Assembly: GCA_036229005.1 (NCBI GenBank)
Contig: JAZAMN010000024.1
Coordinates: forward strand, 1 to 64,000
DNA: 64,000 nucleotides
Origin: Myxococcota bacterium
GTDB lineage: Bacteria > Myxococcota_A > UBA796 > CAJQPC01
Direction: 5' to 3'
The first letter of the stretch is position 1. Each line of letters begins with the position of its first letter. Shown here in pieces: positions 3,811 to 46,984 of this stretch. Made by a program: the position numbers and the translations under genes. A model generated the notes under the pieces. That model saw nothing but the letters and a program-made list of their open reading frames with translations. It ran no database searches and was not told the origin of the DNA.

Positions 3811-4425
3811 ATGCCTCGCAAGCCCAAGCACAACCACGGCCGCGAAGAGATCCTGCGGGCCGCCCTGCGCCTGTTCGCCGCTCGCGGCTTCAAGGGCACC
3901 AGCACGGCGGCGATCGCCCGGGAGGTCGGCGTCAGCCAGCCGCTGATCCACCACCACTTCGGCTCCAAGGAGGCCCTGTGGCAGGCGGTGGTGGAGCAGA
4001 GCTTCTCGCGCATGGGGGAGGGGATCCTGGAGGCGGCCTCGGGTCACCCGCCGGGCATCGAGCGCCTGCGGGCCCTGCTGCTCGCGCTGGTGGACCAGCT
4101 CGCCGCCCAGCCCCAGGCGGGCGCGATCCTCCGCACCGAGTCCATCGCGGGGGGCAGCCACTTCGACTTCCTCTACGAGAACTTCATCGCCGGCCTGGTG
4201 GCCCTCTTCCACCGGGAGCTCCAGGCGGCTGTGGACCAGGGGCTGCTGCGTCCGGTGTCGCCGCCGGTGGCCTACTCCATCGTGATCGGCGCCTGCACCC
4301 AGCCCTTCGCCGACGCCCGGCTGATGGAGCGCTACTTCGGCACCCAGGTGGACGACCCGACCTTCGTTCAGGCCTTCAGGGAGGAGGTCGTGGACACCCT
4401 GCTGGTGGGGCTCGCCCCCCGCTGA
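3811..4425 (+). CDS. TetR/AcrR family regulator
   Basis: ILRAALRLFAARGF..TS...IAREVGVSQPLIHHHFGSKEAL. Confidence 0.95.
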   Translation: MPRKPKHNHGREEILRAALRLFAARGFKGTSTAAIAREVGVSQPLIHHHFGSKEALWQAVVEQSFSRMGEGILEAASGHPPGIERLRALLLALVDQLAAQPQAGAILRTESIAGGSHFDFLYENFIAGLVALFHRELQAAVDQGLLRPVSPPVAYSIVIGACTQPFADARLMERYFGTQVDDPTFVQAFREEVVDTLLVGLAPR

Positions 4426-4563: not shown

Positions 4564-7500
4564 ATGAACCGTCCCAAGCCCCGCCCGCAGCCGCCGACCA
4601 CACCCTTGCTGGGCAACGTCCCGGTCGTGGGGACCTCGACGCCGGTACAGGGTCTGATGAAGTTGGCCGCGGAGTATGGCCCGGTGATGCACATCGACTT
4701 CGCGGGGCGCCCGGTCCTCTTCCTCAGCGGACATCAGGTGGTGAGCGAGGTCTGCGATCTGGGCCGCTTCGACAAGCAGCTCTCGGGGCCGCTGCAGCAG
4801 ATCCGCAGCTTCGCCGGGGACGGCCTGTTCACCGCGCACACCCAGGAGCCCAACTGGGGCAAGGCCCACCGGATGCTGGCGCCGGCCTTCGGGCAGCTCG
4901 CCATGAAGGGCTACTTCGACCGCATGCTGGACATCGCCGACCAGATGTTCGACAAGTGGGGCCGCCTGGGGCCCAAGGCGGAGCTGGACGTGGCGGACAA
5001 CATGACCCGCCTGACCCTGGACACCATCGCGCTCTGCGGCTTCGACTACCGCTTCAACTCCTTCTACCGGGAGTCCATGCACCCCTTCGTGGAGTCCATG
5101 GTGCGGGCGCTGGATGAGGCGGGCATGCGCGCCAAGCTGCTCAAGCTCCAGGTGAAGCTGCGCCGGGCCGCCGACCGGCAGTACACCCAGGACATCGCCC
5201 TGATGAACCGCATCGTGGACGAGGTGATCGCCGAGCGCCGGGAGATGGGGGACGCCGCGCCCACCGGGGACCTGCTCAGCCGGATGCTCGAGGCCACCGA
5301 CCCGGTCACCGGCGAGGGGCTGGACGACCTCAACATCCGCTATCAGATCGTGACCTTCCTGATCGCCGGGCACGAGACCACCAGCGGGCTGCTCTCCTTC
5401 GCCACCTGGTACCTGCTGGAGAACCCCCACGTCCTGGAGCGGGCCCGCGAGGAGGTGGACCGGGTGCTGGGCCGCGGCCGCCCCCGCTACGAGCACATGC
5501 GGGAGCTGGTCTACCTGGAGGCGCTGCTCAAGGAGACCCTGCGGATCTGGCCCACCGCGCCGGCCTTCGCCCTCCAGCCCCTGGAGGACACCACGGTCGG
5601 GGGCTACCCGGTCTCCAAGGGCGAGGTCATCGCGGTGCTCATCCCCCAGCTCCACCGCGACCCCAGCGTGTGGGAGGACCCGGAGCGCTTCGACCCCGAG
5701 CGCTTCATGCCCGGCCGCCGGGAGCAGATCCCGCCCAACGCCTACAAGCCCTTCGGCCACGGCCAGCGCGCCTGCATCGGTCGCCAGTTCGCCCTGCAGG
5801 AGGCCACCCTGGTGCTGGCCATGATGCTGCAGCGCTTCGAGTTCGTGGCCGGCCACGGCACGCCGCTGGTGGTCAAGGAGACGCTCACCCTCAAGCCCGA
5901 CGGGCTGCTCATCCGGGTGCGGGAGCGCCCCGAGCCCTTGGAGCGCGCAGGCGCGACGCCCCAGGAGGACCCCCAGGACCAGACCTCGGAGCGCGAGGCT
6001 CACGGGACGCCTCTGCAGGTGCTCTACGGCTCCAACTCCGGCACCGCCGAGGGGCTCGCGCGGCGGGTGGCTCGGCAGGCGGAGCGCTCGGGCTACGCGG
6101 TGGAGGTCGCGCCCATGGACGCCGCGGTCGACAAGCTGCCCAGCTCCGGCGCGCTCGTCGTGGTGACCGCCTCCTACAACGGCCAGCCCCCCGACAACGC
6201 CGCCGCGTTCGTGCCCTGGCTGGAGACCCTGGCGCCCGGCAGCCTCTCCGGGCTGCGCGTGGGGGTGCTGGGCTGTGGCCACCGCGACTGGCAGCAGACC
6301 TTCCAGGCCATCCCCAAGCGGGTGGAGGCGGCGCTGCAGGCCGCGGGCGCCGAGCGCCTCGTGGACCGGGGGGTGCTGGACGCCGCCGGAGATCTGGAGG
6401 ACCAGGCCGAGCGCTGGCAGGGGGCCTTCTGGTCCGCCTGTGACGCAGCGTTCGAGGTCCAGGGCGTGTCGCAGGCAGCCGGTCCTCGCCTGCGGATCCT
6501 TCAGTCCGACCCGCTGGCGGAGGCCTTCGATCTCCAGACGGTGCAGGTGGAGTCTGTCCGAGAGCTGGTCGACCTCTCCTCTCCCTTCGGCCGCTCCAAG
6601 AAGGAGGTGTGCCTGCGCCTTCCCGAGGGCATGGACTACGTCCCCGGGGACCACCTGGAGCTCTTGGGAGAGAACACCCCGGCCCGCGTGCAGGCCTGGC
6701 TCACCCGCCTGGATCTGCCGCCCTACACGCTCATTGTCACCGAGCCCGCCGGCGAGGACACCGGGGCGCAGACCGATCCGGTCCCCCTGGAGCGCCTGCT
6801 GCGCCTGCACCTGGATCTGAACCAGCCCGCCAGCCTCAAGGCCCTGCGCACGCTCCTCGCGGCGGTGCGTTGCCCGCCGGAGCGCGCCGATCTCGCCCGC
6901 TGGCTGGACGACGAGGCGGCCTACGAGCGCGAGGTCCGGGACACCCGCCTGGACCTGCTCACCCTGTTGGCCCGCTGCCCGAGCGTGGACCTTCCGCCGG
7001 AGACGCTGCTGGGGCTGCTGCCGCCGAACCGGCCGCGGCGCTACTCGATCTCCTCTTCGCCGCTGGTGGACCCGCAGCGCTGCACGCTGACGGTGGCGCA
7101 TGTGAGTGGACCGGCCCTCAGTGGCCAGGGCGAGTACGAGGGCGTGGGCTCGGGGACGCTGGCGCGCGCCCAGGCGGGGACACGTCTGCTGGCGGCCGTG
7201 CGGGCACCCCACAACCCCTTCCACCTGCCCGAAGATCCGCGCCGCCCGCTGCTGATGATCGCCGCGGGAACGGGCATGGCGCCCTTCCGGGGCTTCATCG
7301 AGCATCGGGCGCAGGGGCGGCGCGCGGGCATCGCGGTGGGGCCCGCCGTGCTCTTCTTTGGCTGCGACCACCCCGACGTGGACCTGCTCTACCGACCCGA
7401 GCTGGAGGCCTGGCAGGCGGAGGGTGTGCTGGAGCTGCACACCGCCTTCTTCAAGCAGCCGGCGGGCCAGGTGCACTTTGTGCAGCACCGGCTCTGGGCC

Positions 7501-7701
7501 GAGCGGGAGCGGGTCCGGGCGCTGCTGGCCAAGGACGCGGTGCTCTACCTGTGTGGGGACGGCGCGCGCATGGCGCCGGCGGTGCGGGAGACGCTGGCCC
7601 GCATCGTCCAGGAGACCCAACAGGGCAGCCTGGAGCAGGCCCGGGCAGAGGTCCAGGCCTGGGAAGACGCCGGCCGACTGCGGGTCGACGTCTTTGGGTA
7701 G
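4564..7701 (+). CDS. cyp102: Bifunctional cytochrome P450/NADPH-P450 reductase (CYP102 family)
   Basis: FLIAGHETT, ETLR, PERF, FGHGQRACIG haem Cys; YGSNSGTAE FMN loop; RRYSISS, GTGMAPF, YLCG reductase motifs; 1045 aa. Confidence 0.96.
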   Translation: MNRPKPRPQPPTTPLLGNVPVVGTSTPVQGLMKLAAEYGPVMHIDFAGRPVLFLSGHQVVSEVCDLGRFDKQLSGPLQQIRSFAGDGLFTAHTQEPNWGKAHRMLAPAFGQLAMKGYFDRMLDIADQMFDKWGRLGPKAELDVADNMTRLTLDTIALCGFDYRFNSFYRESMHPFVESMVRALDEAGMRAKLLKLQVKLRRAADRQYTQDIALMNRIVDEVIAERREMGDAAPTGDLLSRMLEATDPVTGEGLDDLNIRYQIVTFLIAGHETTSGLLSFATWYLLENPHVLERAREEVDRVLGRGRPRYEHMRELVYLEALLKETLRIWPTAPAFALQPLEDTTVGGYPVSKGEVIAVLIPQLHRDPSVWEDPERFDPERFMPGRREQIPPNAYKPFGHGQRACIGRQFALQEATLVLAMMLQRFEFVAGHGTPLVVKETLTLKPDGLLIRVRERPEPLERAGATPQEDPQDQTSEREAHGTPLQVLYGSNSGTAEGLARRVARQAERSGYAVEVAPMDAAVDKLPSSGALVVVTASYNGQPPDNAAAFVPWLETLAPGSLSGLRVGVLGCGHRDWQQTFQAIPKRVEAALQAAGAERLVDRGVLDAAGDLEDQAERWQGAFWSACDAAFEVQGVSQAAGPRLRILQSDPLAEAFDLQTVQVESVRELVDLSSPFGRSKKEVCLRLPEGMDYVPGDHLELLGENTPARVQAWLTRLDLPPYTLIVTEPAGEDTGAQTDPVPLERLLRLHLDLNQPASLKALRTLLAAVRCPPERADLARWLDDEAAYEREVRDTRLDLLTLLARCPSVDLPPETLLGLLPPNRPRRYSISSSPLVDPQRCTLTVAHVSGPALSGQGEYEGVGSGTLARAQAGTRLLAAVRAPHNPFHLPEDPRRPLLMIAAGTGMAPFRGFIEHRAQGRRAGIAVGPAVLFFGCDHPDVDLLYRPELEAWQAEGVLELHTAFFKQPAGQVHFVQHRLWAERERVRALLAKDAVLYLCGDGARMAPAVRETLARIVQETQQGSLEQARAEVQAWEDAGRLRVDVFG

Positions 7702-7734: not shown

Positions 7735-8490
7735 TCAGATGCGCAGGCCGCCGTCGACCTCGATCACGCGGCCGGAGAAGTACTCGCACTCGACGATGAA
7801 CTTCACGGCCTGCCAGATCTCCTCGGGCTCGCCGACGCGGCCCAGGGGCACGGGCTTCACGATCTTCTCCAGCACCTGGGGGGGCATGGACTCGACCATG
7901 GGGGTGCGGATGAAGCCGGGGGCGATGGCGCCCACGCGCACGCCGTAGCGACCGAGCTCCTTGGCCCAGACCACGGTGTCGGCGGCGATGCCGGCCTTGG
8001 CGGCGCTGTAGTTGGACTGGCCCATGTTACCGGCCTTGGAGATGCTGCTGATGTTCACGCAGACGGCGGGCTTGACGCCGCCAGCCACGGCGCGCTCAGC
8101 GAACTCGCGGAAGCACAGGAAGGGGCCGGTCAGGTTCACCGCCAGCACCGCGTCCCACTTGGCCTTGGACAGGGCCTTGATGGCGCCGGTCTCGCGGTCC
8201 TTCTTGAGCAGCAGGCCGTCGCGGATGATGCCGGCGTTGTTGACCAGGCAGTTGGCGGGGGCGCCGAAGTAGGCCTCGGCTGCGTCGAAGAGGGCCTTGA
8301 CCTGCTCCTCGTCGGAGATGTCGGCCACGACGCCGTGGGCGCCCAGCTCCTCTGCGGCGGCAGCGACCTTCTCGGGGTCGACGTCGCAGAACACGATCTT
8401 GGCGCCCGCCTTGGCGAACTGGTGGGTGAACTCGCGGCCCATGCCGCTCACGCCACCGGTGACGATGGCGCGGGTCTCGGTGAGCTTCAT
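7735..8490 (-). CDS. SDR family 3-oxoacyl-(ACP/CoA) reductase (FabG/PhaB-like)
   Basis: TGGVSGMG, NNAGIIRD, NISS, GQSNYSAAK, DGG; start moved to MKLTETRAIV. Confidence 0.9.
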   Translation of the reverse strand: MKLTETRAIVTGGVSGMGREFTHQFAKAGAKIVFCDVDPEKVAAAAEELGAHGVVADISDEEQVKALFDAAEAYFGAPANCLVNNAGIIRDGLLLKKDRETGAIKALSKAKWDAVLAVNLTGPFLCFREFAERAVAGGVKPAVCVNISSISKAGNMGQSNYSAAKAGIAADTVVWAKELGRYGVRVGAIAPGFIRTPMVESMPPQVLEKIVKPVPLGRVGEPEEIWQAVKFIVECEYFSGRVIEVDGGLRI

Positions 8491-8543
8491 TCCGAATGTC
8501 CTTTGGCCCTTGGGGCCGATGTCAGGGGAAGTCTTTGAAGGCG

Positions 8544-10310
8544 TCAGTCGCGGCGACGCAGGAGCAGCAGGCCCACACCCAGGGCCAGGCTCAGGGCACC
8601 CAGGGGGACGCCGCGCTCGCTGCCGGTCACGCCGCAGGAGAGGAGGGATGTGGAGCCCTCGGGGCGGTCGCTCCCACCGCTGTCCTCGGCTCCGGTGTCT
8701 GCAGGGCTGCCGCTGTCGTCCGTATCCGAGGTCACCCCGGTGTCGTCCGTGCTCGCAGGCTCGCCCGTGTCGCCGGTGTCGCCGGTGTCCACGGGCTCCG
8801 GATCCGCCAGGACCTCGACCAGCCAGCCCAGGGTGTCGGCGTCCATGTAGCGGGCACCGACGGCGCGCTGCCAGCCGTCCTCCTGGGGATCCGCGTTGCC
8901 CTCGTCGATCATGAGCTGACCGGTGACGGGGCTCGCGTAGAGCAGGTCCAGGTGGCTGAGGTTGACCACCTTCTCCTCGACCACCTTGGCGCCGCGCGCG
9001 GTCAGCGCAGGGTCGTAGGTCGCGGAGTCCAGGAACACCACGCCGTCGCTGGGGCCGGTGAGCTCGCCCAGGATCAGCTTGCCGCCCATGAGCCCCTGCA
9101 CCTCGTCCTCGTTGAGGCCGAAGGGCTCCAGGGTGTCCCCGATCGCAGATGCGTAGAGGTCTGCCCAGGCGTCCGTCCCCCAGGTGGCCCAGTCGACCCA
9201 GGTCTCCCCGAAGATGGCCGTCCAGATGTACTCGGCGCCGTTGGCCATCAAGGGGTTCTCGCCAGCCAGCAGGAAGGCCTCGATGTCCGGGTCGATGCCG
9301 GTCTGCTCCAGGCGGGCGATCAGGTCGCCGCCGGCCTCGATGGCGTCGTCGATGCCGGTGCTGTAGCTGTAGTAGCCGAAGCCACCGTAGTAGGTGGTCC
9401 ACCAGTCCTGCTGGAGGGAGTAGGCCCCCAGCCAGGGCAGCTCACCGGGCAGGGGGTGGTCCTGCACGGCCAAGAGCTGGCGCTGCCCAGGGAAGAGGTC
9501 CTGGCCGTCCGGCAGCATGTCCTGGTCCGAGAGGTCGGTCACCCAGGCCGGGGCCCCGGTCGTGTAGGGGTAGTAGCTGGACCAGCTCGCCGGGCTGATG
9601 GCGGTCTCGGAGGAGAGCGCGGCGTAGTTGTTGCCGCTCCAGCGGTACAGGGTGTCGACGCCCTTGAGGGGGGTGCCGATCAGCACCAGTCGGCGGATGT
9701 CTCCGCGGTACTCGGTGCCCTGGGACTCGTAGGCGATGCCGCCCCAGTCCGCGCCGCTGTGGTGGCTGGCGTAGAGGGTGGCCGCGATGCCGCCCTTGGA
9801 GTGGGCCACGACGTCCACCTGGCTGGCGCCGGTGCGCTGCTTGATGCGGGCGATGGCGTCGGCCACGACCTCGGCCTGCATGAACATGTCGCCGTGGGTG
9901 TGGGCGAAGGTCAGCACGTAGGCGGGGCGCCCCTGCTGGTCCATCTTGGTGGCCATGGTGATGAAGCCGCGGCTGCCGTTGTCGCCGGCGCCGGGGACAA
10001 AGAGCACGGGGGTGCCGCTGGCGCTGGCCTCGCCGGGGGCCAGGTGCAGCAGGAAGCTGCCGGAGTCGGGCGTGCCTCCGCCGAAGCAGGTGTTGATCCA
10101 GGGGGACCAGCTCGCGTCCTGCCACGCGGTCATGCTGTTGAAGGCCTCCTGCTTGAGCAGGCTGCCGCTGTCGTGGTGGCGCTCGATGGCCGACCAGAGC
10201 TGGACGTCCCCCTCCTGGGTGTAGGTCTCCTGACCCGTGAAGACCTGCTCCGGGCTGGTCGGATCGAAAGCGCTCGTTGCGTGGGCCAGACCGATCAGGG
10301 AGAGAATCAC
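8544..10310 (-). CDS. Exported lipase/esterase-family alpha/beta hydrolase with D/T/G linker and MYXO-CTERM-like anchor
   Basis: Signal MILSLIGLAHA; PVLFVPG oxyanion segment, VAHSKGG lipase box, GTPLKG, SDGVV, SHLDL; C-terminal Cys + TM + RRRD. Confidence 0.8.
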   Translation of the reverse strand: MILSLIGLAHATSAFDPTSPEQVFTGQETYTQEGDVQLWSAIERHHDSGSLLKQEAFNSMTAWQDASWSPWINTCFGGGTPDSGSFLLHLAPGEASASGTPVLFVPGAGDNGSRGFITMATKMDQQGRPAYVLTFAHTHGDMFMQAEVVADAIARIKQRTGASQVDVVAHSKGGIAATLYASHHSGADWGGIAYESQGTEYRGDIRRLVLIGTPLKGVDTLYRWSGNNYAALSSETAISPASWSSYYPYTTGAPAWVTDLSDQDMLPDGQDLFPGQRQLLAVQDHPLPGELPWLGAYSLQQDWWTTYYGGFGYYSYSTGIDDAIEAGGDLIARLEQTGIDPDIEAFLLAGENPLMANGAEYIWTAIFGETWVDWATWGTDAWADLYASAIGDTLEPFGLNEDEVQGLMGGKLILGELTGPSDGVVFLDSATYDPALTARGAKVVEEKVVNLSHLDLLYASPVTGQLMIDEGNADPQEDGWQRAVGARYMDADTLGWLVEVLADPEPVDTGDTGDTGEPASTDDTGVTSDTDDSGSPADTGAEDSGGSDRPEGSTSLLSCGVTGSERGVPLGALSLALGVGLLLLRRRD

Positions 10311-11239
10311 TGCTGCTCCAGGAAGCTGCGCACAGCGCTGTTGAAGGTCTCAGGGGCGTCGTGGTGGACCGTGTGGCCGGCCCCCCGGACCATCAGGAGC
10401 TCTGCGTTGGGCATCGCATCCCGGCCATGCTCCGCGACGGTGCGCGTGCGGCCGCCGTTGAAGATGGGGTTGGGGATCATGCGGTCCAGGGTGCCGAAGA
10501 CGATCAGGGTGGGGGTCTGTATCTCCCCCAGGCGGTCGTGCACGGGGTAGTCCACCATCCCGGCGACGCTTCGGGAGACCGCAACAGCCGTGCCCTCGAA
10601 AGAGGGGTGCTTGCCCATGCGGACGCGCTCTTCGATCAGCCGCTCCACGCCTTCGTCGTAGTGGTTGAACACCATGTGCGTGAAGTTGGTCCGGACGTTC
10701 TCTTCGGGCGTGCCCAGGGCGCGCGTCTCGGTCCAGTACTGCTTCATCCACGCCGCGTGGCCGGGGTTGAAGGTCTCGATGCCCGCGGGGGCGCTCAGCA
10801 CGAGCGCGTCCACTCGGCTGGGGTGATCCAGCGCCATGGTGAGCGCGATCTGGCCTCCCATGGAGTGGCCGACCAGCGTGGCGGAGTCCAGCTCCAGCTC
10901 GTCCATGAAGTCGACCAGGACCTCCGCGAACCAGGGGGGCGTGTAGGGGGCGTCGGGGCGGTCGCTCGCGCCGTAGCCGGGCAGGTCCAGGGCGATGACC
11001 CGGTAGTCCTGGGCGAAGGCCGGGATCTGGTACTCCCAGAAGCCCATGTAGGAGCTCAGGCCGTGCACCAGGATCAGCGGGCGCCCGGAGCCGCCGGAGT
11101 CCACGTAGGCCACGCGGGTGTCAGCAGCCTCGACGTACTGGACCGGGAGCGGCGTCCAGAGCTCTGCAGGGTCCAGCGGGGGGGCCGTGGTGTAGCGGGG
11201 GGCGCAGCCCAGGATGCCCATCATCAGTGCGGAGATCAT
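10307..11239 (-). CDS. Alpha/beta hydrolase lipoprotein
   Basis: Lipobox ILGC; VHGL, DLPGYG.S, GHSMGG, GTLD, AGH. Confidence 0.9.
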   Translation of the reverse strand: MISALMMGILGCAPRYTTAPPLDPAELWTPLPVQYVEAADTRVAYVDSGGSGRPLILVHGLSSYMGFWEYQIPAFAQDYRVIALDLPGYGASDRPDAPYTPPWFAEVLVDFMDELELDSATLVGHSMGGQIALTMALDHPSRVDALVLSAPAGIETFNPGHAAWMKQYWTETRALGTPEENVRTNFTHMVFNHYDEGVERLIEERVRMGKHPSFEGTAVAVSRSVAGMVDYPVHDRLGEIQTPTLIVFGTLDRMIPNPIFNGGRTRTVAEHGRDAMPNAELLMVRGAGHTVHHDAPETFNSAVRSFLEQQ

Positions 11240-12774
11240 CAGAACACCAACCAGTCGCCGTGGACGTAGACCATGTAGGGGTCGCGCTCGCCTTCGATGA
11301 AGGCCGTGGCGGCGGTGACGCCTACGTTGAAGAAGAGGAAGGGCTCGCCGATCACGCGCACGTTGACTTCGGTCGCGCTGGAGCCCTCGCGGACGGCGCG
11401 GCCACCGCCGACCTGCACGGTGAGCCGATCCGGGATGGGGTCGTAGCCCACCGAGCCGGTCACCGCGCGCATCCCCTGACCCTGCCCGGAGATGTCGAAG
11501 TTCACCGGGGTCATCCGGTTGATGGAGAACAGGTCCTGGAAGAGCAGGACGCAGCCGTGGGTGGTGTAGACCGAGCCCACGATGCCGTAGCTGTTGCCCG
11601 TGATGATGCCGGTGTAGCGGCTCTCATCGGCGTCATCGGCCGAGACCCAGAGGCCCTCGAGCCGTACGACGCTGCCCTGGCCGCGGGTGTAGCGGAAGCG
11701 GGCTTCGACATCGAAGAGCTGCCCGGAGATGCCCACATCGGGCTTGCCCGTGACGTACATGCGCCCCAGGTTCCAGGCAGCCAGCCCGCGAACGCCGAAG
11801 GGGCCCTGGTGGAGGCCGACGTTGTAGCCCGCGTCCGCGACGAGCCAGGTGATGTCCGCGTTGACGTCCGGAGCGGTGTCCTCGCCGTCATCCCGCAGGT
11901 CCAGCCGCGCGGCCCCTTGGAGCTCCGCCAGCGCGGAGGTGGGCCCGACGCCGAAAGCGCCACCGTTCCCTGCGCTCCTGTCCCGAAGGTGCCAGGCGTG
12001 GAAGCCCACGGTCGTGGCCCAGATTGGGTGCCACTGCAGGTCGGCCATCAACAGGCCGACGTCGTCCTGAACGGCGGCCCCGTTCTCGGTCAGGGTGAAG
12101 GCCCCCGCGCGCCAGCGGACCACCGGGGCGTAGTCGTTGTTGTGGGTGCCGTGCAGGGTGATGCCCGCGGCCTCGGAGCCGAAGAACATCAGCCCACCGC
12201 CGCTGCGGAAGAGGGCGTCTCCGCCGCTGGTGTTGGGGTCGTAGACCCCGTCGTTCATGAACTGCTGGCCCAGGGTGATCTGCAGCCAGTCGCTGGGCTT
12301 GACCACGACGTTCAGGCGCCGGGTCTGGAGGTTGACCTGGTCGGCGCCGAAGCCACCGCCGGTGTTGCCTCCGGTGCCGTAGGAGAGGTCGCCGAAGGAG
12401 AAGTCGACCTCCCAGCCGGCGTTCAGCTTGACCTTGCCGTCCAGGATGGGCGGCGCGTAGCCAAAGAAGCCGTTGGTGCGGAACTCGGTGTACATGGCCG
12501 GGGGGCCCTCACCGAGCACCACGGTGCTGTTGCTGCCCCCGAGCTGCCCGACGAGCTGCCCGTTGTAGAAGGGGTTGTCCGTGGCGATGTCCGTCATGGT
12601 GGCGCGGGTCTGCACCAACCCCAGGAAGGAGAAGCCGTTGTCGGGTTCCGGCTCGGTGGGCTCGACCACCTCCATGGCGCGGGACTCCAGCGGAGCGCCG
12701 ACCAGAGAGGGGTCCGAGCCCTCCTGCGCGGAGGCGGCCGCAGCCGCCAGCAGAAGGGGCAGCATGGGACTCAC
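11239..12774 (-). CDS. Outer-membrane beta-barrel protein (porin-like)
   Basis: Signal peptide; alternating aromatic/hydrophobic strands; C-terminal VYVHGDWLVF ending in Phe. Confidence 0.7.
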   Translation of the reverse strand: MSPMLPLLLAAAAASAQEGSDPSLVGAPLESRAMEVVEPTEPEPDNGFSFLGLVQTRATMTDIATDNPFYNGQLVGQLGGSNSTVVLGEGPPAMYTEFRTNGFFGYAPPILDGKVKLNAGWEVDFSFGDLSYGTGGNTGGGFGADQVNLQTRRLNVVVKPSDWLQITLGQQFMNDGVYDPNTSGGDALFRSGGGLMFFGSEAAGITLHGTHNNDYAPVVRWRAGAFTLTENGAAVQDDVGLLMADLQWHPIWATTVGFHAWHLRDRSAGNGGAFGVGPTSALAELQGAARLDLRDDGEDTAPDVNADITWLVADAGYNVGLHQGPFGVRGLAAWNLGRMYVTGKPDVGISGQLFDVEARFRYTRGQGSVVRLEGLWVSADDADESRYTGIITGNSYGIVGSVYTTHGCVLLFQDLFSINRMTPVNFDISGQGQGMRAVTGSVGYDPIPDRLTVQVGGGRAVREGSSATEVNVRVIGEPFLFFNVGVTAATAFIEGERDPYMVYVHGDWLVF

Positions 12775-13289
12775 TGGCGCTGGAAGACCTGCAGGTTCTG
12801 ACCTGCAGACAGACCGGGGCCCGAGGTGCTGCCGAAGCCGCTCTCGGGGGTCGGCGCGGTGAAGCCGTAGTCCGGGACGGTCTGCACGACCTCGTACTGC
12901 ATGGTGGTGCCGTCGATGGCGTAGATGCCCTCGGCGGTGGCCTCGCTGGGCTGGGTCTGGCTCAGCACGATGCTGTGGGGATCGGTGCTGGTGTCCGCCG
13001 TGTAGGTGCCGGAGAAGGTGGTGGTGGCGCCGTCACCGTCGGTGCTCACGACCGTGTAGGTGCCGTCGTCGTTGAAGGTGGCGTCCACCTTGACGTAGCC
13101 GTAGAGGCCCAGGACCTCGGAGACGTCCTCGCCCTCGGAGAGCCAGTCGCCGGTGATGACCGGGGTCTCTTCGCCGGTGTCGTCGGTGCCCGTGTCGTCC
13201 TGGGTCTGGGTGTCGTCGGTGTTGGTGTCATCCACGTCGTCGGGGACGCAGCCGATGGTCAGGGCCAGGGAGAAGAGGAGGGTGCTCAT
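12771..13289 (-). CDS. Acidic lipoprotein, small beta-rich (lipocalin-like) domain
   Basis: Lipobox TIGC; D/T-rich linker; ITGDWLS and F..DGTY motifs. Confidence 0.75.
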   Translation of the reverse strand: MSTLLFSLALTIGCVPDDVDDTNTDDTQTQDDTGTDDTGEETPVITGDWLSEGEDVSEVLGLYGYVKVDATFNDDGTYTVVSTDGDGATTTFSGTYTADTSTDPHSIVLSQTQPSEATAEGIYAIDGTTMQYEVVQTVPDYGFTAPTPESGFGSTSGPGLSAGQNLQVFQRQ

Positions 13290-13304
13290 TGGGGGCTCCA
13301 GGGA

Positions 13305-14792
13305 TCAGGTGGGGGTTTGGGTCTCGCCGAGCAGGGCCAGCGCCTGCTTGTCGATCTTTCCGCTCGCGGTGCGCGGCAGGGCGGCCTGCACCACGTAGGA
13401 CTTGGGGAGCTTGTAGCGGGCCAGCTTTCCATCCAGGAAGGCCCGCAGCTCGGTCGCTGCCAGGCTGGCGCCGGGGCGGGGCTCGATGAAGGCCCGGCCG
13501 ACCTCGCCCCAGCGGGCGTCCGGTACGCCGATCACCGCCGCGGAGGCGACCTTCTCGCACTGGAGCAGGACGGCCTCGATCTCGGCGGGGTACACGTTCT
13601 CGGCGCCGGAGATGAACATCTCCTTGGAGCGGCCGCGCACGTAGTAGAAGTGCTCTTCGTCCCGGCTCAGGATGTCCCCGGTGCGGAACCAGGGCCCGCC
13701 GGGTCCGTCCACCATGGCCTTGGCGGTGGCCTCCGGGTTGTCCAGGTAGCCGCCGAACACTGCCGGACCGGCCAGCAGCAGCTCGCCATCCTGTCCGGCG
13801 GGGACGTCGTTCCCGTCCGGGTCCACCAGGCGCATGGCGATGTGGTGGATGGGCTGGCCCACGGAGCCCAGCTTGTCCTGGACCCGAGCGGGGGGCAGGG
13901 AGAAGCAGTTGGGGCCGACCTCGGTCATGCCAAAGCCCTGGCGCAGGGGGATCTTGCGGTCCAGGTAGGTCTTGAGCAGAGCCGCGCCGGTGGGGGCCCC
14001 GCCGCAGAGCGCGTCCCGCACGGTGCTGCAGTCGGTGCTCGGAAAGTCCGGGTGGTCCGCCAGCATCTGGAAGATGGTGGGCACGCCCATGAGCAGGGTG
14101 ATGCCCTCCGACTGGATCAGGCCCAGAGCCTGAGCGGGGTCAACCTTCTGGGTGAGCACCACGCGGCCGCCGCGGTGCAGCAGGGGGGTGCTCAGGGAGT
14201 TCAGGCCGCCCGTGTGGAACAGCGGCGTGAAGGTCAGGGTGCTGTCCTGGGGGTTGAGGTCACAGGCCAGCAGGGTGTTGGTCGCGTTCCACTGGAGCTG
14301 CCGGTGGGTGAGCAGCGCGCCCTTGGGCCGGCCCGTGGTGCCCGAGGTGTACATGAGCACCCAGGGGTCGGAGAGGCGGCTCCCTGGCGCATCGCACACC
14401 AAGCGCTCACCGGGGCCTGCGGCCAGATCCAGGGTGTCGCAGGACAGCTTGGCCGCGAACTCGGGCTCGGCGAGGACAACCGTTGCCCGGCTGTGCTCGA
14501 TCTGCCAATCCCACTCCCCCGGCGCTAGCCGCCAGTTCATGGGAGCGAACACGGCGCCCAGCTCAGCGCAGGCAAAGAGCAGCGCGAAGTGCTCCCCCCG
14601 GTTGTGCGAGAGCAGGCTCACGACGTCTCCGGCGACCACACCCTGCTCCTGCAGACGCCCCGCCCAGAGCAGGCTGTCCCGGTAGAGCTCCGCGTAGGTC
14701 CAGCGCCGGTCGTGGTCCACGTCAAAGACCGCCTCCGCGTCGGGGCGGAAGCGGGCGTGCATCTGCAGCCAGTTGCTGGTGGAGTGCATCAT
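13305..14792 (-). CDS. Acyl-CoA synthetase (AMP-forming, FadD/MenE-like)
   Basis: YTSGTTGRPKG, GFGMTE, WFRTGD, GRSKEMFISGAENVYP, LPRTASGK. Confidence 0.93.
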   Translation of the reverse strand: MMHSTSNWLQMHARFRPDAEAVFDVDHDRRWTYAELYRDSLLWAGRLQEQGVVAGDVVSLLSHNRGEHFALLFACAELGAVFAPMNWRLAPGEWDWQIEHSRATVVLAEPEFAAKLSCDTLDLAAGPGERLVCDAPGSRLSDPWVLMYTSGTTGRPKGALLTHRQLQWNATNTLLACDLNPQDSTLTFTPLFHTGGLNSLSTPLLHRGGRVVLTQKVDPAQALGLIQSEGITLLMGVPTIFQMLADHPDFPSTDCSTVRDALCGGAPTGAALLKTYLDRKIPLRQGFGMTEVGPNCFSLPPARVQDKLGSVGQPIHHIAMRLVDPDGNDVPAGQDGELLLAGPAVFGGYLDNPEATAKAMVDGPGGPWFRTGDILSRDEEHFYYVRGRSKEMFISGAENVYPAEIEAVLLQCEKVASAAVIGVPDARWGEVGRAFIEPRPGASLAATELRAFLDGKLARYKLPKSYVVQAALPRTASGKIDKQALALLGETQTPT

Positions 14793-16183
14793 TTCGCTGC
14801 CAGCTCCTCTGTGTCGGCGCCGTGGGTCTGGTCCACGCCCACGCGCCCGAGCAGCAAGGCCAGGGGCACGGAGACGGCCATCGCCAGGACCGCGCTGACG
14901 CCAGGGTTCTGAATCACGGTCTGTCCCAGACCGAAGTGTAGCGCCAGGGCCACGACCGCGGAGACCACCGCGACCTTGGCGTTGAGGCGACCAGGAAGGA
15001 AGAAGCCCGCGAGCAGCGGCCCGGAGGACGCCGCCACCAGGCCGTACACACCCTGCTGTCCCAGGATGAGCACCAACTGCGGGGGGGAGAGCGCCATCCA
15101 GATGGTCAGGCCGGCCAGCGCCGCGAGCACCAGGCGGTTCATCGCGACGGAGGCGCGCTCGGGGATGAGGTCCCCGCTGACGGAGGCAGAGATGGCCACC
15201 AGGAGCCCGTCCAGAGTGGACATGGACGCCGCCAGGATGGCCACGGTGACCAGGGCGCTCAGGGGCTCCCAGGTGAAGGCCTGCTGCAGGTAGGCGGCCA
15301 TGAACTTGTCGGTGGGGACGCCGGCCTCGATGGAGACCCGGCCCCAGACACCGGCCAACAGCACCGACGAGAACACCAGGTAGCAGGCCAGCGCCACCCA
15401 GACGGTCTTGCGCGCGTTGGCGGCGCCGTCCACGTACAAGGACTTGGCCAGCAGGTGGGGCTGGGTGGTCAGCGCGACGCCCATGAAGAAGGGCACCACC
15501 CAGACCTCCCAGGGGGTGGAGAAGAGCTTGGAGTCCGGCACGGTCAGGCCGCTTTCCAGCAGCGAGCTCACCGCTTGCGGCGCGAGCTCCACCCCCGACA
15601 GAGCGATGGCCACGGAGACCACCAGCATCACCAGGCCCTGGGCCGTGTTGGTGTAGGCGTGGGCCGTGGCCCCGCCGAAGCCGGTGTACCCGAACACAAA
15701 GAGCACGATCCCGATGACCGACCAGCGGTAGGGCACCCCCAGGGCCGCCTCCATCACGTAGCCGCAGCCCACGGTGATCAGCACCAGGTAGGCCACATTC
15801 AGGATGTTCAGGGCGCCGAAGAGCCGCCGCAGCCCGAAGCTCTCGTAGCGGGAGCCCAGCCAGTGGGGGACGGTCAGGGCCTTGAACTGCGCGCCCAGGC
15901 TCTGGAAGCGCTTGGAGAAGACCAGCAGGCCCAGGGCGATGCCCGCGATGAAGGGGGGGCCGAAGCCCATCAGGGCGGCCAGACCCTCGTTGTAGACGAA
16001 GCCCGGCATGATGACGAAGGTCGCCGAGCTGGCCAGCGAGGCCCCCAGCGTGATGCCCGCCACCCAGGGGCTCATCTTCCCGTCGCCGATAGCGAAGCCC
16101 TCAGACGAGCCGCTGTTGCGGCCGCCCCGCCAGGCGAGGAAGGCCGTCAGCACGGCATAGACCAGGAAGAAGGCCCAGGCCAT
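14789..16183 (-). CDS. Sodium:solute symporter family protein
   Basis: Many TM helices; S..TF...PG..Y..G, L..RY.S, YT.FGG, ILAASMSTLD motifs. Confidence 0.9.
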   Translation of the reverse strand: MAWAFFLVYAVLTAFLAWRGGRNSGSSEGFAIGDGKMSPWVAGITLGASLASSATFVIMPGFVYNEGLAALMGFGPPFIAGIALGLLVFSKRFQSLGAQFKALTVPHWLGSRYESFGLRRLFGALNILNVAYLVLITVGCGYVMEAALGVPYRWSVIGIVLFVFGYTGFGGATAHAYTNTAQGLVMLVVSVAIALSGVELAPQAVSSLLESGLTVPDSKLFSTPWEVWVVPFFMGVALTTQPHLLAKSLYVDGAANARKTVWVALACYLVFSSVLLAGVWGRVSIEAGVPTDKFMAAYLQQAFTWEPLSALVTVAILAASMSTLDGLLVAISASVSGDLIPERASVAMNRLVLAALAGLTIWMALSPPQLVLILGQQGVYGLVAASSGPLLAGFFLPGRLNAKVAVVSAVVALALHFGLGQTVIQNPGVSAVLAMAVSVPLALLLGRVGVDQTHGADTEELAAK

Positions 16184-17289
16184 CAGGCGACCTCTCGCAT
16201 CCAGGTGTCCAGCATCGGGTAGAAGTGCCGCGGGCCGAAGGCGCCGACGATCACGCCGATGTGGCCGGCGTCCAGGCGCTCCACCCGGGCGTGGGGGACC
16301 AGGTCAGCGAGCGCCTCCGCGGACTCTGCGGGGGCGATGAAGTCCCGCTCCGCGCTACAGACCAGCACCGGACAGGTGATGTCCTGGAGCCGGATCTCCC
16401 GCTGGCCGATGAACCAGCCGCCGTTGAAGAGCAGGTCCTGCTGGTAGGCCTTGGAGATGAACTCCTGGGCGAAGGCGCCGGGCAGGGGCAGGTTCTCCTC
16501 CAGCCAGCGCTCGCGGGCCAGGGTGCGCCGCAGGCGCTTGGGGTCGCGGGAGGCCTTCTCGATGTTGAAGAACTTGGTGATCGCGCCCACCGGATCCAGA
16601 AGCTGGAACGCCGGCTTCATCATGGAGACGGGCAGCAGGCCGTCCTTTGCGATGGCCTTGTCGACGTCCACGTGCGCCACGAAGTCCCGGAAGCGCCCGG
16701 CCTTCTCAAAGTGGAAGGGCGCGTTCAGGAGGCTGAGGCCTGCCACCCGGTCCGGGTGGAGCGCGGTGTACATGGCCGCCAGGGTGCCGCCCATGCAGTA
16801 GCCAAAGAGCAGCGCCTGGCTGTGGCCGGCGTGTCGGCAGGCCCGATCGATGCTGCGATGCAGCAAGCTCTCCAGCACGTAGCCCACGTCCTCTTGGGCG
16901 TCCTCCGGGCCCGGGGTGCCCCAGTCCACCAGGTAGACCGGGTGGCCCTTCTCGGAGAGCCCCCGAACCAGCGAGCGCTCCGGCTCCAGGTCGAGGATGG
17001 TGGCCCGGTTGATGAGACTGGGCACCAACACCACCGGGGGTCGGGGGCGCATATCAACCGGCTCAGACCCCTCCGCAGGCGAGGACACGCTGGCCGGATA
17101 GTGCTTGAGCTGCAGCTTGTCGTGGACGTGGACCACCTGGTAGGGGGTCTGGCCCAGGGCCGGCCGCGGGTGGGTGCTGTGGACGTGGATCCCCCGCCGC
17201 AGGCGCTCGATCCGTGAGAGACCGTCGATTCGCATCCAGAGGTCGCCGACGGCCCGGAGCAGGTCCGGTGCATGGGTGGGGGGCTGCAT
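16183..17289 (-). CDS. phaC: Class III poly(3-hydroxyalkanoate) synthase subunit PhaC
   Basis: GQTP, VPSLINR..ILDL.P.RSLV, VDWG.P, GYCMGG (Cys), ERDFIAP (Asp), AGHIG (His); 368 aa. Confidence 0.92.
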   Translation of the reverse strand: MQPPTHAPDLLRAVGDLWMRIDGLSRIERLRRGIHVHSTHPRPALGQTPYQVVHVHDKLQLKHYPASVSSPAEGSEPVDMRPRPPVVLVPSLINRATILDLEPERSLVRGLSEKGHPVYLVDWGTPGPEDAQEDVGYVLESLLHRSIDRACRHAGHSQALLFGYCMGGTLAAMYTALHPDRVAGLSLLNAPFHFEKAGRFRDFVAHVDVDKAIAKDGLLPVSMMKPAFQLLDPVGAITKFFNIEKASRDPKRLRRTLARERWLEENLPLPGAFAQEFISKAYQQDLLFNGGWFIGQREIRLQDITCPVLVCSAERDFIAPAESAEALADLVPHARVERLDAGHIGVIVGAFGPRHFYPMLDTWMREVA

Positions 17290-17293
17290 CGCG

Positions 17294-17827
17294 TCAGTCC
17301 TTGGCGGGGGCCTTGGGCGGGGACTCGGCAGCAGCCTTGGCAGCAGCCTTGGCGGGGGCCTTGCGGGTGCGGCGCGCGGGCGCCTTCTTGGCGGGCGCTG
17401 CGCTCTGGGCCAGGAGCTGGTCCAGCTTGGACTCCATGCCTGCCAGCCGCTCGTTCATCTCCAGGCGGGCCTCCGCGGCCTCCACCCGGGCGGTCAGCGC
17501 CTCCTTCTCCAGCTCCACCAGCTTGTCCTGGAGCTGCAGGATGCGGTCCTCAAGCTGGAGCTGCCGGTCCTCCAGGAGGCTGGCGATGCGCGCGACCCGC
17601 AGCATGTCCTGGCGGGTGGGCAGGTGAAGCTGCTCCAGGTTCTTGTCGACCTGCTTCTCGTAGGCGCTGCGCAGGCGCCCCTGGCTGGCCAGGTTCTGAC
17701 CCATCTGCTTGAGGAAGGCCGGGGACTCCAGGACCTCGTCCCACCAGCGCGTCATGGACTGCTCCCAGACGTCGTACATCTGTCCGGAGAGCTTGTTGAA
17801 GTCGGGGATGTGACCGCTGTTTGCCAT
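17294..17827 (-). CDS. phaE: PhaE-like PHA synthase partner subunit
   Basis: W..WW..VL.SP.F, L.LPTR.D, coiled coil, Lys/Ala-rich tail; directly upstream of phaC. Confidence 0.75.
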   Translation of the reverse strand: MANSGHIPDFNKLSGQMYDVWEQSMTRWWDEVLESPAFLKQMGQNLASQGRLRSAYEKQVDKNLEQLHLPTRQDMLRVARIASLLEDRQLQLEDRILQLQDKLVELEKEALTARVEAAEARLEMNERLAGMESKLDQLLAQSAAPAKKAPARRTRKAPAKAAAKAAAESPPKAPAKD

Positions 17828-17863
17828 GGGCGGGGTTCCTTGTGACGGAGGTGTAGCGACTGG

Positions 17864-17900
17864 TGTTGCGATGTGTCAAGCGAATTGTGATTGCGCAACA
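17864..17900 (-). promoter_or_regulatory. phaE promoter (-35 TTGACA) with putative PhaR box
   Basis: TGTTGCGATGTGTCAAG is similar to TGTTGCAGTGCGTCAAG at 18246-18262. Confidence 0.55.
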
Positions 17901-17906
17901 GGGAAA

Positions 17907-17937
17907 GGGGAGAAGCGAGGATCCCCCGCCTCTCCCC
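17907..17937 (-). terminator. Probable intrinsic terminator of phasin gene
   Basis: Minus strand GGGGAGAGGCG..CGCTTCTCCCC stem followed by TTT. Confidence 0.55.
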
Positions 17938-17958
17938 GGATCTTCAACGGGGTGACGA

Positions 17959-18189
17959 TCAGGCCTCGGCGCTGGGCGCGCCGGGCACCTGGAAGGCGGC
18001 CATCCACGCAGCGGTGGTGGCCTGCAGCAGCTCCTGGTTGAGCTTCATGGCGTCTCGGCCGGCCTTCATGGTGGCGTCCACCTGGCCGCGCAGGAGCTCG
18101 GCCTGCTGGATCTGCCAGTCCAGGATCCGGGTCTGCTCCTGGGTGAAGGACTTCTGGAAGGTCTCGGTCATCTGCTTGAGGTCGGTCAT
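17959..18189 (-). CDS. Small helical phasin-like protein (76 aa)
   Basis: MTDLKQMTETFQKSF..., amphipathic and Q/A-rich; AGGAG SD; lies between phaE and phaR. Confidence 0.6.
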   Translation of the reverse strand: MTDLKQMTETFQKSFTQEQTRILDWQIQQAELLRGQVDATMKAGRDAMKLNQELLQATTAAWMAAFQVPGAPSAEA

Positions 18190-18245
18190 CTTGGCTCCTG
18201 TGGGAGGGGGTTCAGGCCCCTTCTCGCCTCCAGTCTTAGAGGCTA

Positions 18246-18285
18246 TGTTGCAGTGCGTCAAGGAAGGGATCCTGCGTTGCAGCAA
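18246..18285. promoter_or_regulatory. Divergent phasin/phaR promoter with TGC-N3-GCA boxes
   Basis: TGTTGCAGTGCGTCAAG (TTGACG on minus strand) and TGCGTTGCA at 18273-18281. Confidence 0.55.
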
Positions 18286-18337
18286 TCTTTCGCGCCGCAG
18301 CGCCATGGGATAGCTTGCTGCCCAGGAGGTCCTGCGC

Positions 18338-18916
18338 GTGCGGATCATCAAGAAGTACGGCAACCGCCGGCTCTACGACACGGACAAGAGCGCCTACATC
18401 AACCTGGATGAGCTCGCGGCTCTGGTCCGGGGTGGCCAGGAGGTCCGGGTGATCGCCGCAAAAGGCGGGGAGGACCTGACTCGAGAGGTCCTGCTGCAGG
18501 TCGTGCTGGAGAACCTGCAGGGCGGCGAGCTCTTCAACGTGAGCATGCTGCACCGCATTATCCGCTCCACGGGGGACGACCCCTGGCAGCTCCTGCTCCG
18601 CAAGCAGCTCGCGGCGGGCATGGAGATGCTCAGCACGCAGATGGACCAGGTCGAGCGCGTGTTCAGCGCGACCATGTCGGGCGCTCCGGACATGGGCAGC
18701 CCGTCCTCGTCGGCGGGAGGATCGACGCCGCGCTACGACCAGACACCGGCCCCGGACGTTGTGGACGAGGTGCGGGAGGACCCCGATCCCTCCTATGAAC
18801 CCGAGCCGGCGGAGCCTGAGCCCAAGACGCCGCCCACGCCCCAGCCCGCCCCGGATCAGGAGCTGGATGCTCTGCGCGCGCGCCTCGCCGCCCTGGAGGA
18901 GCGCCTGCGTCGTTGA
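18338..18916 (+). CDS. phaR: PHA synthesis regulator PhaR
   Basis: IIKKYGNRRLYDT..S.YI.L..L..LV..G..V.V....GEDLT..VLLQ; AGGAGG SD. Confidence 0.92.
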   Translation: MRIIKKYGNRRLYDTDKSAYINLDELAALVRGGQEVRVIAAKGGEDLTREVLLQVVLENLQGGELFNVSMLHRIIRSTGDDPWQLLLRKQLAAGMEMLSTQMDQVERVFSATMSGAPDMGSPSSSAGGSTPRYDQTPAPDVVDEVREDPDPSYEPEPAEPEPKTPPTPQPAPDQELDALRARLAALEERLRR

Positions 18917-18943: not shown

Positions 18944-19366
18944 TCAGTAGTCGGGCTTCTCGCGGGAGCGCTTCTTCTCGCTGCGCTGCGACTTGGCCTT
19001 GAGGCGGCGCTCCTTGCTGGCGCGGGAGGGGCGGGTCTTGCGGCGGCGCTTGGGGGGCTGGAGCTGGCCGCGGATCATCTCGGCGAGGCGGTCGCGGGCC
19101 TCCTGCAGGTTGTCGGCCTGGCTGCGGCTGTTGGCGGAGTCGATGCGCAGCTCGCCGCTCTCGTTGATGCGGGAGCCGAAGCTCTCCTCCAGGCGCCGGA
19201 TCACCGCGGGGTGCAGACCGGTATGCTGCAGTGCACAAAAGAGCTGCACCCGGGTGGCCCGCATGTTGACGTTCTGACCGCCGGGTCCGCCCGAGCGGCT
19301 GTGCGCCACCCGCAGGCTGCTGCCCGGGATGCAGAGGTGGTCGGTGATCGGGAGGTCGTCGGCCAT
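18944..19366 (-). CDS. arfB: Alternative ribosome-rescue peptidyl-tRNA hydrolase ArfB
   Basis: SRSGGPGGQNVN, RSQ..N...A, basic tail KRRRKTRPSRASKERRL. Confidence 0.95.
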   Translation of the reverse strand: MADDLPITDHLCIPGSSLRVAHSRSGGPGGQNVNMRATRVQLFCALQHTGLHPAVIRRLEESFGSRINESGELRIDSANSRSQADNLQEARDRLAEMIRGQLQPPKRRRKTRPSRASKERRLKAKSQRSEKKRSREKPDY

Positions 19367-31226: not shown

Positions 31227-33175
<1,949 letters not shown>

Positions 33176-33179
<4 letters not shown>

Positions 33180-45557: not shown

Positions 45558-45590
45558 GGGCGGAGTGTACCGCCCTTTGCGCCGGGGAAC

Positions 45591-46919: not shown

Positions 46920-46984
46920 GATCCCTGGGCTTTAGGCTCAACCGCGATCGGATCGGTCCGAAGGGGCTCACAAGGAGTCTGCCC

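Follow-up and report, generated by a model that had tools for sequence, protein, structure and literature searches.

Class III and class IV polyhydroxyalkanoate (PHA) clusters (phaEC of Allochromatium, cyanobacteria and haloarchaea; phaRC of Bacillus) encode a two-subunit synthase with a Cys-Asp-His PhaC, together with PhaR, a phasin-like gene and a PhaR box, and the same parts are predicted in and around a block of nine genes that we analysed in a Myxococcota bacterium (GenBank assembly GCA_036229005.1, contig JAZAMN010000024.1, positions 1 to 64,000; this whole 64,000-nucleotide stretch is called the window). Unlike those clusters, the block is without phaA, has six envelope and activation genes after phaC and encodes a short PhaE, and most of its relatives have a tandem second phaC paralogue. 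Extracellular degradation of polyhydroxybutyrate (PHB), as carried out by type-1 e-dPHAscl enzymes, PhaZ7 of Paucimonas lemoignei, oligomer hydrolases and the BdhA route, likewise combines a secreted serine hydrolase with a second esterase, and relatives of the block bear true type-1 family members in its hydrolase slot; however, the window hydrolase represents a new family, is predicted to be cell-anchored and comes with a dedicated barrel and lipoprotein, and entry into metabolism would be by coenzyme A (CoA) ligation, unlike the BdhA route. Extracellular PHA depolymerases are already known (PMC2666664, PMC11893044, PMC11644497). In the PHA cycle of Pseudomonas putida (PhaZ, FadD/ACS, PhaC), an acyl-CoA synthetase re-activates monomers, which can be re-polymerised (PMC3918157, PMC4834554), but that cycle recycles the cell's own cytoplasmic granule, whereas the hydrolases of the window cluster are predicted to face outward. 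The predator Bdellovibrio bacteriovorus hydrolyses prey PHA (Bd3709, Bd2637) and made no PHA in assays (PMC4834554; a correction gives the strain as 109J), and the available text of that report mentions no linked synthase or uptake genes.

The nine genes of the window cluster are co-directional and, in the order of reading, are:

17294-17827, minus strand: short PhaE-like subunit of 177 amino acids with a Lys/Ala-rich tail (PF09712 27.6 bits, cut-off 25.7)
16183-17289, minus strand: PhaC-type synthase, class III/IV-like (C165 in GYCMGG, D316, H343)
14789-16183, minus strand: Na+/solute symporter (SSS), an accessory inner-membrane importer (PF00474, E 3e-24)
13305-14792, minus strand: acyl-CoA ligase of the PRK06839/PRK09088 group (AMP-binding), predicted to activate an imported acid
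12771-13289, minus strand: lipoprotein, predicted lipocalin-like barrel (lipobox-like IGC; no Pfam match)
11239-12774, minus strand: outer-membrane beta-barrel whose family has no name (predicted to have 18 strands and a fold like that of AlgE/Occ)
10307-11239, minus strand: lipoprotein serine esterase (lipobox LGC; GHSMGG; PF00561, Abhydrolase_1, E 2e-33)
8544-10310, minus strand: secreted alpha/beta hydrolase with a linker and a MYXO-CTERM-like tail, predicted to be surface-anchored (AHSKG; S171, D422, H453)
7735-8490, minus strand: 3-ketoacyl reductase of PRK08217 type, a short-chain dehydrogenase/reductase (SDR), accessory (NF006072 295.8 bits, cut-off 298)

Successive gaps from phaE to the SDR gene are +4, -1, -4, +15, -4, -1, -4 and +53 bp, and these coordinates agree with the co-directional order, tight junctions and reductase 53 bp further on that the original prediction had described. 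It had also known of no characterised operon with this logic, and we too found no description of the cluster in the open-access literature searched (subscription journals being outside this scope). Its parts are known kinds of chemistry. The available text on sludge Myxococcota notes PHA genes without cluster detail (PMC11821767; its supplements may list them), and the available portions of two further papers give no gene context for Bacillus phaZ (PMC7236355, PMC4908106).

To assess conservation, we used 61 genomes related to the window genome (G000; 94% complete), labelled Myxococcota by several sources. The barrel was present in 33 of the 61, an orthologous phaC (E under 1e-90) also in 33 and both in 32, the two mismatches being fragmented assemblies; close kin have lost the whole module jointly (for example G003, of the same genus). 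In 30 regions from the same taxonomic order, around 30 of the 32 other barrel matches, the order phaC-ligase-lipoprotein-barrel-esterase-hydrolase was kept in 25, with four cut by contig ends and one split; a divided cluster is seen in one relative (L036 and L194), and the genes recur reshuffled in other Myxococcota families. More widely, 50 of 401 sampled genomes of the phylum had the barrel, and a one-genome-per-species barrel scan gave 100 loci, of which 80 were taken in, making 106 distinct loci with the earlier ones. After 44 of the 106 with short flanks were left out, 62 loci were tallied for neighbours within 9.5 kb of the barrel: the esterase was present in 62, the lipocalin-like lipoprotein in 53 (an unrelated lipoprotein replaced it in 6), phaC in 41, the hydrolase in 40, the ligase in 40, phaR in 37, and an SSS symporter and a KASIII-like gene in 15 each. 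The original prediction had made loss of synteny with phaEC the result that would speak against it; synteny instead proved conserved, in the same order and beyond, and an arrangement so conserved is far beyond chance. Judged from sequence comparison, then, the block is a real and conserved PHA-linked module, probably for uptake, that is apparently undescribed. It belongs mainly to uncultured myxobacteria, with versions in two cultured ones. Several records titled Klebsiella, Bifidobacterium or Enterobacterales (L102, L119, L157 and others) carry the Myxococcota-type cluster, and their titles look wrong.

The window PhaC is the sole PhaC in its genome and has the size and motifs of a class III enzyme (about 350-370 amino acids, with G-x-C-x-G, Asp and His); it aligns to solved PhaC, its best matches in the PDB are PHA synthases, and its relatives retain the Cys-Asp-His triad motifs. 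In a tree of 39 rows picked from the loci, without an outgroup, the PhaCs form separate well-supported clades, with a different clade carried by other families. The PhaE-like protein matched TIGR01834 and the Bacillus class IV PhaR model TIGR02132 equally weakly. In most relatives (L031-L055; L031:6213-7232), phaC is preceded in tandem by a further PhaC paralogue (GYCVGG; identity about 32%; own clade); it is missing from the window's genus, and the pair could possibly form a heteromeric or substrate-split synthase.

The hydrolase has a signal-like N-terminus, a structure model with a predicted local distance difference test score (pLDDT) of 88 and a triad (S171/D422/H453) that is invariant across 120 homologues. 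By eye, its tail has the Cys motif, transmembrane helix and Arg-rich end that define MYXO-CTERM, as do those of homologues; in the NCBIfam scan for MYXO-CTERM the window protein had no match and one homologue a weak match. Such tails direct proteins to the cell surface of M. xanthus (PMC11980579). The gene is single-copy in 37 of the 61 relatives, 36 of which have a phaC. The best hint of its substrate, drawn from gene content, is a depolymerase family found in its place: of the 62 loci, 40 carry the hydrolase, 11 a PHB-depolymerase-family protein and none both (a twelfth, in L074, was dropped as a weak match, E 3e-6, lying 9 kb away). All seven replacements scanned passed TIGR01840, two also passed NF050058 (type-1 extracellular, cut-off 150) with 274 and 260 bits, the other five scored 129-142, and most bear the same kind of surface tail as the hydrolase. 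One TIGR01840 match lay no more than about 4 kb from the barrel in four of five genomes checked, with none in the fifth, which bears the hydrolase; in three genomes of 8.8-10.7 Mb (two of them over 10 Mb), the sole match falls inside the cluster. Two cultured carriers have such matches elsewhere than in the cluster, and one Bacteroidales genome has none. In Archangium gephyra, the slot is held by a Lipase_2 protein with 102 bits to the PhaZ7 model (cut-off 450). The window hydrolase was also considered as a PhaZ7 orthologue and rejected (NF050060 28.7 bits against a cut-off of 450; lipases match better in sequence and fold); its AHSKG box is not diagnostic, since an A-H-S-x-G box is common to PhaZ7 (AHSMG) and Bacillus lipases (PMC2666664). 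At L073:9672-12428, a PHB depolymerase of type 1, which bears Ig domains and ends in a MYXO-CTERM-like tail, runs in frame into the next lipoprotein, giving a 918-amino-acid open reading frame (ORF) that is either a real fusion or the product of a lost stop. In several Nannocystaceae loci (L070:3380-4618, L100:14888-16156), the gene between a TetR gene and the depolymerase encodes a 410-amino-acid protein that resembles a lipoprotein, contains Gly-Pro-Leu repeats and matches no family.

The barrel has no Pfam or NCBIfam match and is not a member of PF13372 (AlgE; Alginate_exp), which scores only in distant homologues; 18 long strands are present in its AlphaFold2 model (pLDDT 91), so that the original barrel call holds. 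Foldseek placed AlgE first (E 3e-13, template-modelling (TM) score 0.55), then OccAB4, MOMP and the OprD family, and the predicted fold is that of the 18-strand AlgE/OprD (Occ) barrels, with 10-12% identity to AlgE. AlgE comes first, but OprD-family importers share the fold, which therefore leaves the direction of transport unfixed. The lipoprotein had structure matches to lipocalin-like clusters in the ESM Atlas (TM 0.6-0.7), and a complex prediction for barrel and lipoprotein (score 0.05, mark 0.32) speaks neither for nor against their association. In all 100 loci whose flanks were long enough, the esterase is a neighbour of the barrel, and the maps place it immediately after the barrel; it weakly matches Bacillus-type PhaZ (92 bits, cut-off 300).

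The ligase matched PRK06187 (418 bits) and PRK06839 (404 bits), both under cut-off, and its pocket motifs are nearly fixed (TGG(L/M)N in 58 of 62, xGPN in 59 of 62). Four names for 3-hydroxybutyryl-CoA synthetase had no occurrence in the open-access literature searched. The original prediction saw the symporter as hard-wired to the synthase, which was not borne out: it has an orthologue in 18 of the 61 genomes (17 with an orthologous phaC), is inside the cluster in only four of these 18 and is thus accessory, and it lies inside 2 of the 25 complete same-order clusters. This query had no close match in 16 of 33 carriers, including two same-genus genomes with the cluster, and the protein is not ActP-like (NF006903, 31.8 bits against 750; NF009135, 41.7 against 850). 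The SDR gene comes after the hydrolase in 4 of the 25 complete clusters, and its family occurs in 52 of the 61 genomes, making it not module-specific; the enzyme may interconvert 3-hydroxyacyl- and 3-oxoacyl-CoA, and we did not accept it as a dedicated PhaB, a role left unproven (TIGR01829 155 bits, best in genome 226, cut-off 302). The cluster is thiolase-free, as had been stated, yet the genome has four full-length thiolases (one, PcaF-like, in the window at 53897-55096), two MaoC genes and a CoA-transferase pair; the lack of phaA in the cluster carries little weight, because thiolases and a MaoC hydratase lie elsewhere. No acetoacetyl-CoA synthetase or PhaB scored over cut-off in the window genome, and no BdhA did in the 61 genomes (up to 35 candidates in each genome were scored), in line with entry as a CoA ester.

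Upstream of phaE lie three further features:

17959-18192, minus strand: 77-amino-acid helical protein, likely phasin (similar-sized helical ORFs here in most relatives)
18273-18284, minus strand: predicted PhaR box (core TGC-N3-GCA), preceding the phasin-like gene
18338-18916, plus strand: PhaR, PHA-responsive repressor with a PHB_acc_N DNA-binding domain, divergent (PF07879 86 bits, cut-off 25, E 1.5e-24)

Of 32 intergenic regions between phaR and phaE, 28 contain the TGC-N3-GCA core, with 35 sites in all where shuffled sequences predict 4.6, and the window box agrees with the Sinorhizobium meliloti PhaR motif YGCRNYGCR (PMC12542648). The placement of phaR alongside, as originally proposed, is upheld by the PF07879 match (TIGR01848 gave 95 bits, under its cut-off of 109), while the phasin remains a lead: the 77-amino-acid ORF has no Pfam match and ESM Atlas leads to PHB_acc and Phasin_2 clusters, all scoring under 0.9. 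In seven loci of other families, phaR sits inside the operon, between esterase and hydrolase. A promoter scan of the cluster gave 0 sigma-70 sites and five weak terminator-like hairpins (2.4 expected). In one RNA run (7% of words matched), short contigs of near-identical sequence fell on the genes for SDR, hydrolase, barrel and ligase, and one spanned the symporter-ligase junction (14645-14865), but such contigs cannot prove transcription or a single transcript; three other RNA runs gave nothing useful for the cluster.

Related modules bear on the direction of transport. In four Bacteroidales loci (L117:1763-12597, L123, L126, L160), the order is thiolase-SDR-SSS-CoA transferase-KASIII-KASIII-lipoprotein-barrel-esterase, a short-chain catabolic set without phaC that is a candidate anaerobic PHB-oligomer catabolic operon; that barrel and esterase here accompany a thiolase, reductase and CoA-transferase instead of phaC argues for import. 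Importers recur beside the module (SSS and MFS, with ABC in a haloarchaeal ligase-hydrolase-KASIII-MaoC cluster). In Chondrinema, Salarchaeum and Brevibacillus, related ligases (37-38%) have an importer as neighbour together with a hydrolase, KASIII, MaoC or SDR, in apparently uncharacterised clusters of PRK06839 ligase and PRK06840 KASIII that are unlike the window cluster in having no phaC or barrel; a Chondrinema 'hypothetical' after the esterase proved to be no barrel homologue. Such combinations (L165:6856-12846, L166:6643-16598, L167:6397-12771, L180:5093-16024) span Bacteroidota, haloarchaea, Bacillota and Myxococcota, and may represent an unrecognised 3-hydroxyacid catabolic pathway. 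Together, the swaps in the hydrolase slot, the Bacteroidales copies and the related ligase clusters suggest import of a short hydroxyacid ester, entering metabolism as a CoA ester, and import is the most likely direction.

A parallel module is built around an unrelated barrel, TIGR04551, found in 92 of 251 phylum genomes and in none from families f1, f3, f5 and f7; a hidden Markov model of the window barrel family fails to find TIGR04551 proteins. All 20 TIGR04551 loci fetched, which were high-scoring and picked for long contigs rather than at random, have lipoprotein, esterase and barrel beside phaC (20 of 20), with a ligase in 18, phaR in 17, an SDR in 11, SSS in 5, the hydrolase in 3 and a TIGR01840-type protein in 0. 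Family f2, of the window's own order, is without the window-type barrel and has SSS, a long PhaC that seems to be a PhaE fusion, two further lipoproteins, an esterase and the TIGR04551 barrel, with its hydrolase grouped with phaR and SDR, away from phaC. These parallel modules (L181:2793-10326, L199-L218) extend across many Myxococcota families, and a phaC-tied envelope module is thus widespread in Myxococcota.

We propose that the window cluster serves to scavenge external PHA and re-polymerise it directly by PhaEC, a reading whose chances we consider evenly balanced. The surface hydrolase would cut polyester set free when cells die or lyse, PHA oligomers would enter through the barrel, and the lipoprotein esterase would trim them; SSS or another inner-membrane carrier, the symporter being one of several interchangeable importers, would take up the product, and the ligase would form (R)-3-hydroxyacyl-CoA for PhaEC to re-polymerise, the whole under PhaR control. 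The SDR could provide a branch to catabolism via acetoacetyl-CoA, and a 3-hydroxybutyrate dehydrogenase would not be needed. Part of the original prediction is upheld, by the conserved phaEC synteny, the likely import direction and the PHB-depolymerase-family gene that relatives have in the hydrolase slot; the hard-wired symporter and the weight given to the missing phaA are not upheld, and the hydrolase falls outside the known PHA depolymerase families.

Several results weigh against this proposal, and some of them favour other explanations. The window hydrolase failed every PHA depolymerase model in Pfam and NCBIfam, neither it nor the window genome matched a type-1 depolymerase family (PF10503, TIGR01840, NF050058), and the structural comparison with PHB depolymerases that had been suggested returned a generic lipase fold belonging to no known PHA depolymerase family: lipase BlEst2 led a wide fold search (Z 20.7, root-mean-square deviation 2.7, 230 aligned), lipases outscored PhaZ7 (rank 15, TM 0.21-0.34) in the fold search, and PhaZ7 was not among the 50 matches listed in the wide search, which excludes nothing. 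No surface hydrolase was detectable in 10 of the 62 loci, the exchange with depolymerases amounts to about two lineages rather than eleven independent events, and counts throughout are not independent, as the loci are related by descent. TIGR01840 also covers acetyl-xylan and feruloyl esterases. In the ligase, a conserved Asn behind the A4 His is one that 4-coumarate ligases have too. PhaC scored 218 bits against TIGR01836, below the cut-off of 365 (cluster relatives 199-344), and the genome could also supply PHA precursors via thiolase/SDR or MaoC. A lipid-feeding operon, in which a surface lipase frees prey fatty acids, lipocalin and barrel import them, and the ligase and beta-oxidation with MaoC or SDR feed PhaEC, would account for the lipase-like fold and sequence of the hydrolase, the lipocalin-like lipoprotein, the long-chain family (PRK06187) at the top of the ligase's NCBIfam matches, the MaoC genes and the long-chain-type ligases that substitute in Nannocystaceae and in 10 of the 20 TIGR04551-type loci (7 of the 62 tallied loci have one); Bradymonas, moreover, accumulates PHA during predation and has been proposed to build it from beta-oxidation (PMC7460792). 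We nonetheless think this rather unlikely: the hydrolase is replaced by PHB-depolymerase-family proteins, not ordinary lipases, a short-chain CoA-transferase substitutes for the ligase in Bacteroidales, no beta-oxidation gene is a regular neighbour in the annotated loci, and the 18-strand barrel is not FadL-like. Scavenging of hydroxycinnamates, with feruloyl esterases freeing ferulate, the barrel importing it and an Fcs-like ligase activating it, appears highly improbable. It draws on the ligase's nearest solved structure, a feruloyl-CoA synthetase (E 9e-112; Amycolatopsis-type Fcs leads the PDB matches by 40 orders of magnitude), and on feruloyl esterases among the hydrolase fold matches, but a Pfam scan of the cluster turned up neither an enoyl-CoA hydratase/lyase nor a vanillin dehydrogenase, the Fcs pocket reads AAALG and AAPG where the cluster ligase has TGGLN and VGPN, and feruloyl-CoA is not a known PhaC substrate.

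Two other explanations were considered. PHA scavenging might be purely catabolic and merely co-regulated with phaEC, with 3-hydroxyacids burned via SDR and thiolase or a KASIII-like enzyme and PhaEC fed by its usual routes; this would fit the barrel and esterase found without phaC in 21 of the 62 loci (those of Archangium gephyra and Bacteroidales having KASIII and SDR as well), the split cluster and the f2 hydrolase with phaR and SDR. It seems quite unlikely to us, given that, within the order to which the window genome belongs, phaC shares overlapping codons with the adjoining ligase or symporter gene and disappears along with the module, that a KASIII-type gene occurs in only 2 of the 61 relatives, and that (R)-3-hydroxyacyl-CoA, once made, is already a PhaC substrate. 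Alternatively, PhaEC polyester or oligomers might exit through the barrel, with esterase and hydrolase remodelling a surface coat. The top fold match, AlgE, is an exporter, distant homologues match Alginate_exp, and many TIGR04551-type loci combine phaC and a ligase without a depolymerase: 17 of the 20 are without a surface hydrolase, and 0 of 5 such genomes have a TIGR01840 match. A linked depolymerase is thus not universal in these modules, which tells against the simplest scavenging reading and keeps the lipid and export explanations alive. Export is very unlikely all the same, as the inner-membrane neighbours are importer families, synthase-free copies of the module exist, storage granules are suggested by the phasin-like gene and the PhaR box, and OprD-family importers share the barrel fold. 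A bolder version of scavenging, which we regard as doubtful, is that prey PHA is stolen as pre-built blocks: the barrel would import 3-hydroxyacid oligomers, a ligase whose pocket is roomier than a monomer requires would activate dimers or trimers, and PhaEC, or a KASIII-like enzyme where a lineage has no PhaEC, would use the oligomer-CoA directly, saving ATP; the module would then have arisen at least twice, with unrelated barrels, and be the missing uptake machinery of natural PHA recycling.

Elsewhere in the window, a self-sufficient, CYP102-like P450-reductase fusion (P450, flavodoxin, FAD and NAD domains; 4564-7701, plus strand), preceded by a TetR gene (3811-4425, plus strand), converges on the SDR gene and is not conserved beside the cluster in the loci of same-order relatives. 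Next to phaR lie an RF-1 domain (ArfB-like) gene (18944-19366, minus strand), retained there only within the same genus, and a GH79 glycoside hydrolase lipoprotein (19415-20827, minus strand). The remaining genes are ordinary, among them an acetate-CoA ligase (31227-33179), glycosyltransferases around a sulfotransferase (44448-48403), a photolyase (49895-51196), the PcaF-like thiolase and an efflux pair (60623-63231).

To our knowledge, the passage of PHA breakdown products through the Gram-negative envelope has been little described, and the cluster names candidate genes for their uptake and for a 3-hydroxybutyryl-CoA synthetase, offers a new hydrolase family for testing as PHA depolymerases and, through the parallel module, places part of TIGR04551 in a functional context for the first time. 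Because two cultured myxobacteria, Paraliomyxa miuraensis (L088, linked to phaC) and Archangium gephyra (L154, lacking phaC), have versions of the module, these proposals are testable now. The carriers, probable predators, likely rebuild the PHA of others into their own reserve; if the proposal is true, predators and scavengers would convert the storage polymer of other cells into their own while bypassing acetyl-CoA, a conversion that would matter for how carbon moves through sludge, lakes and sediments, and the cluster could provide a ready enzyme set for the biological recycling of PHA plastics.

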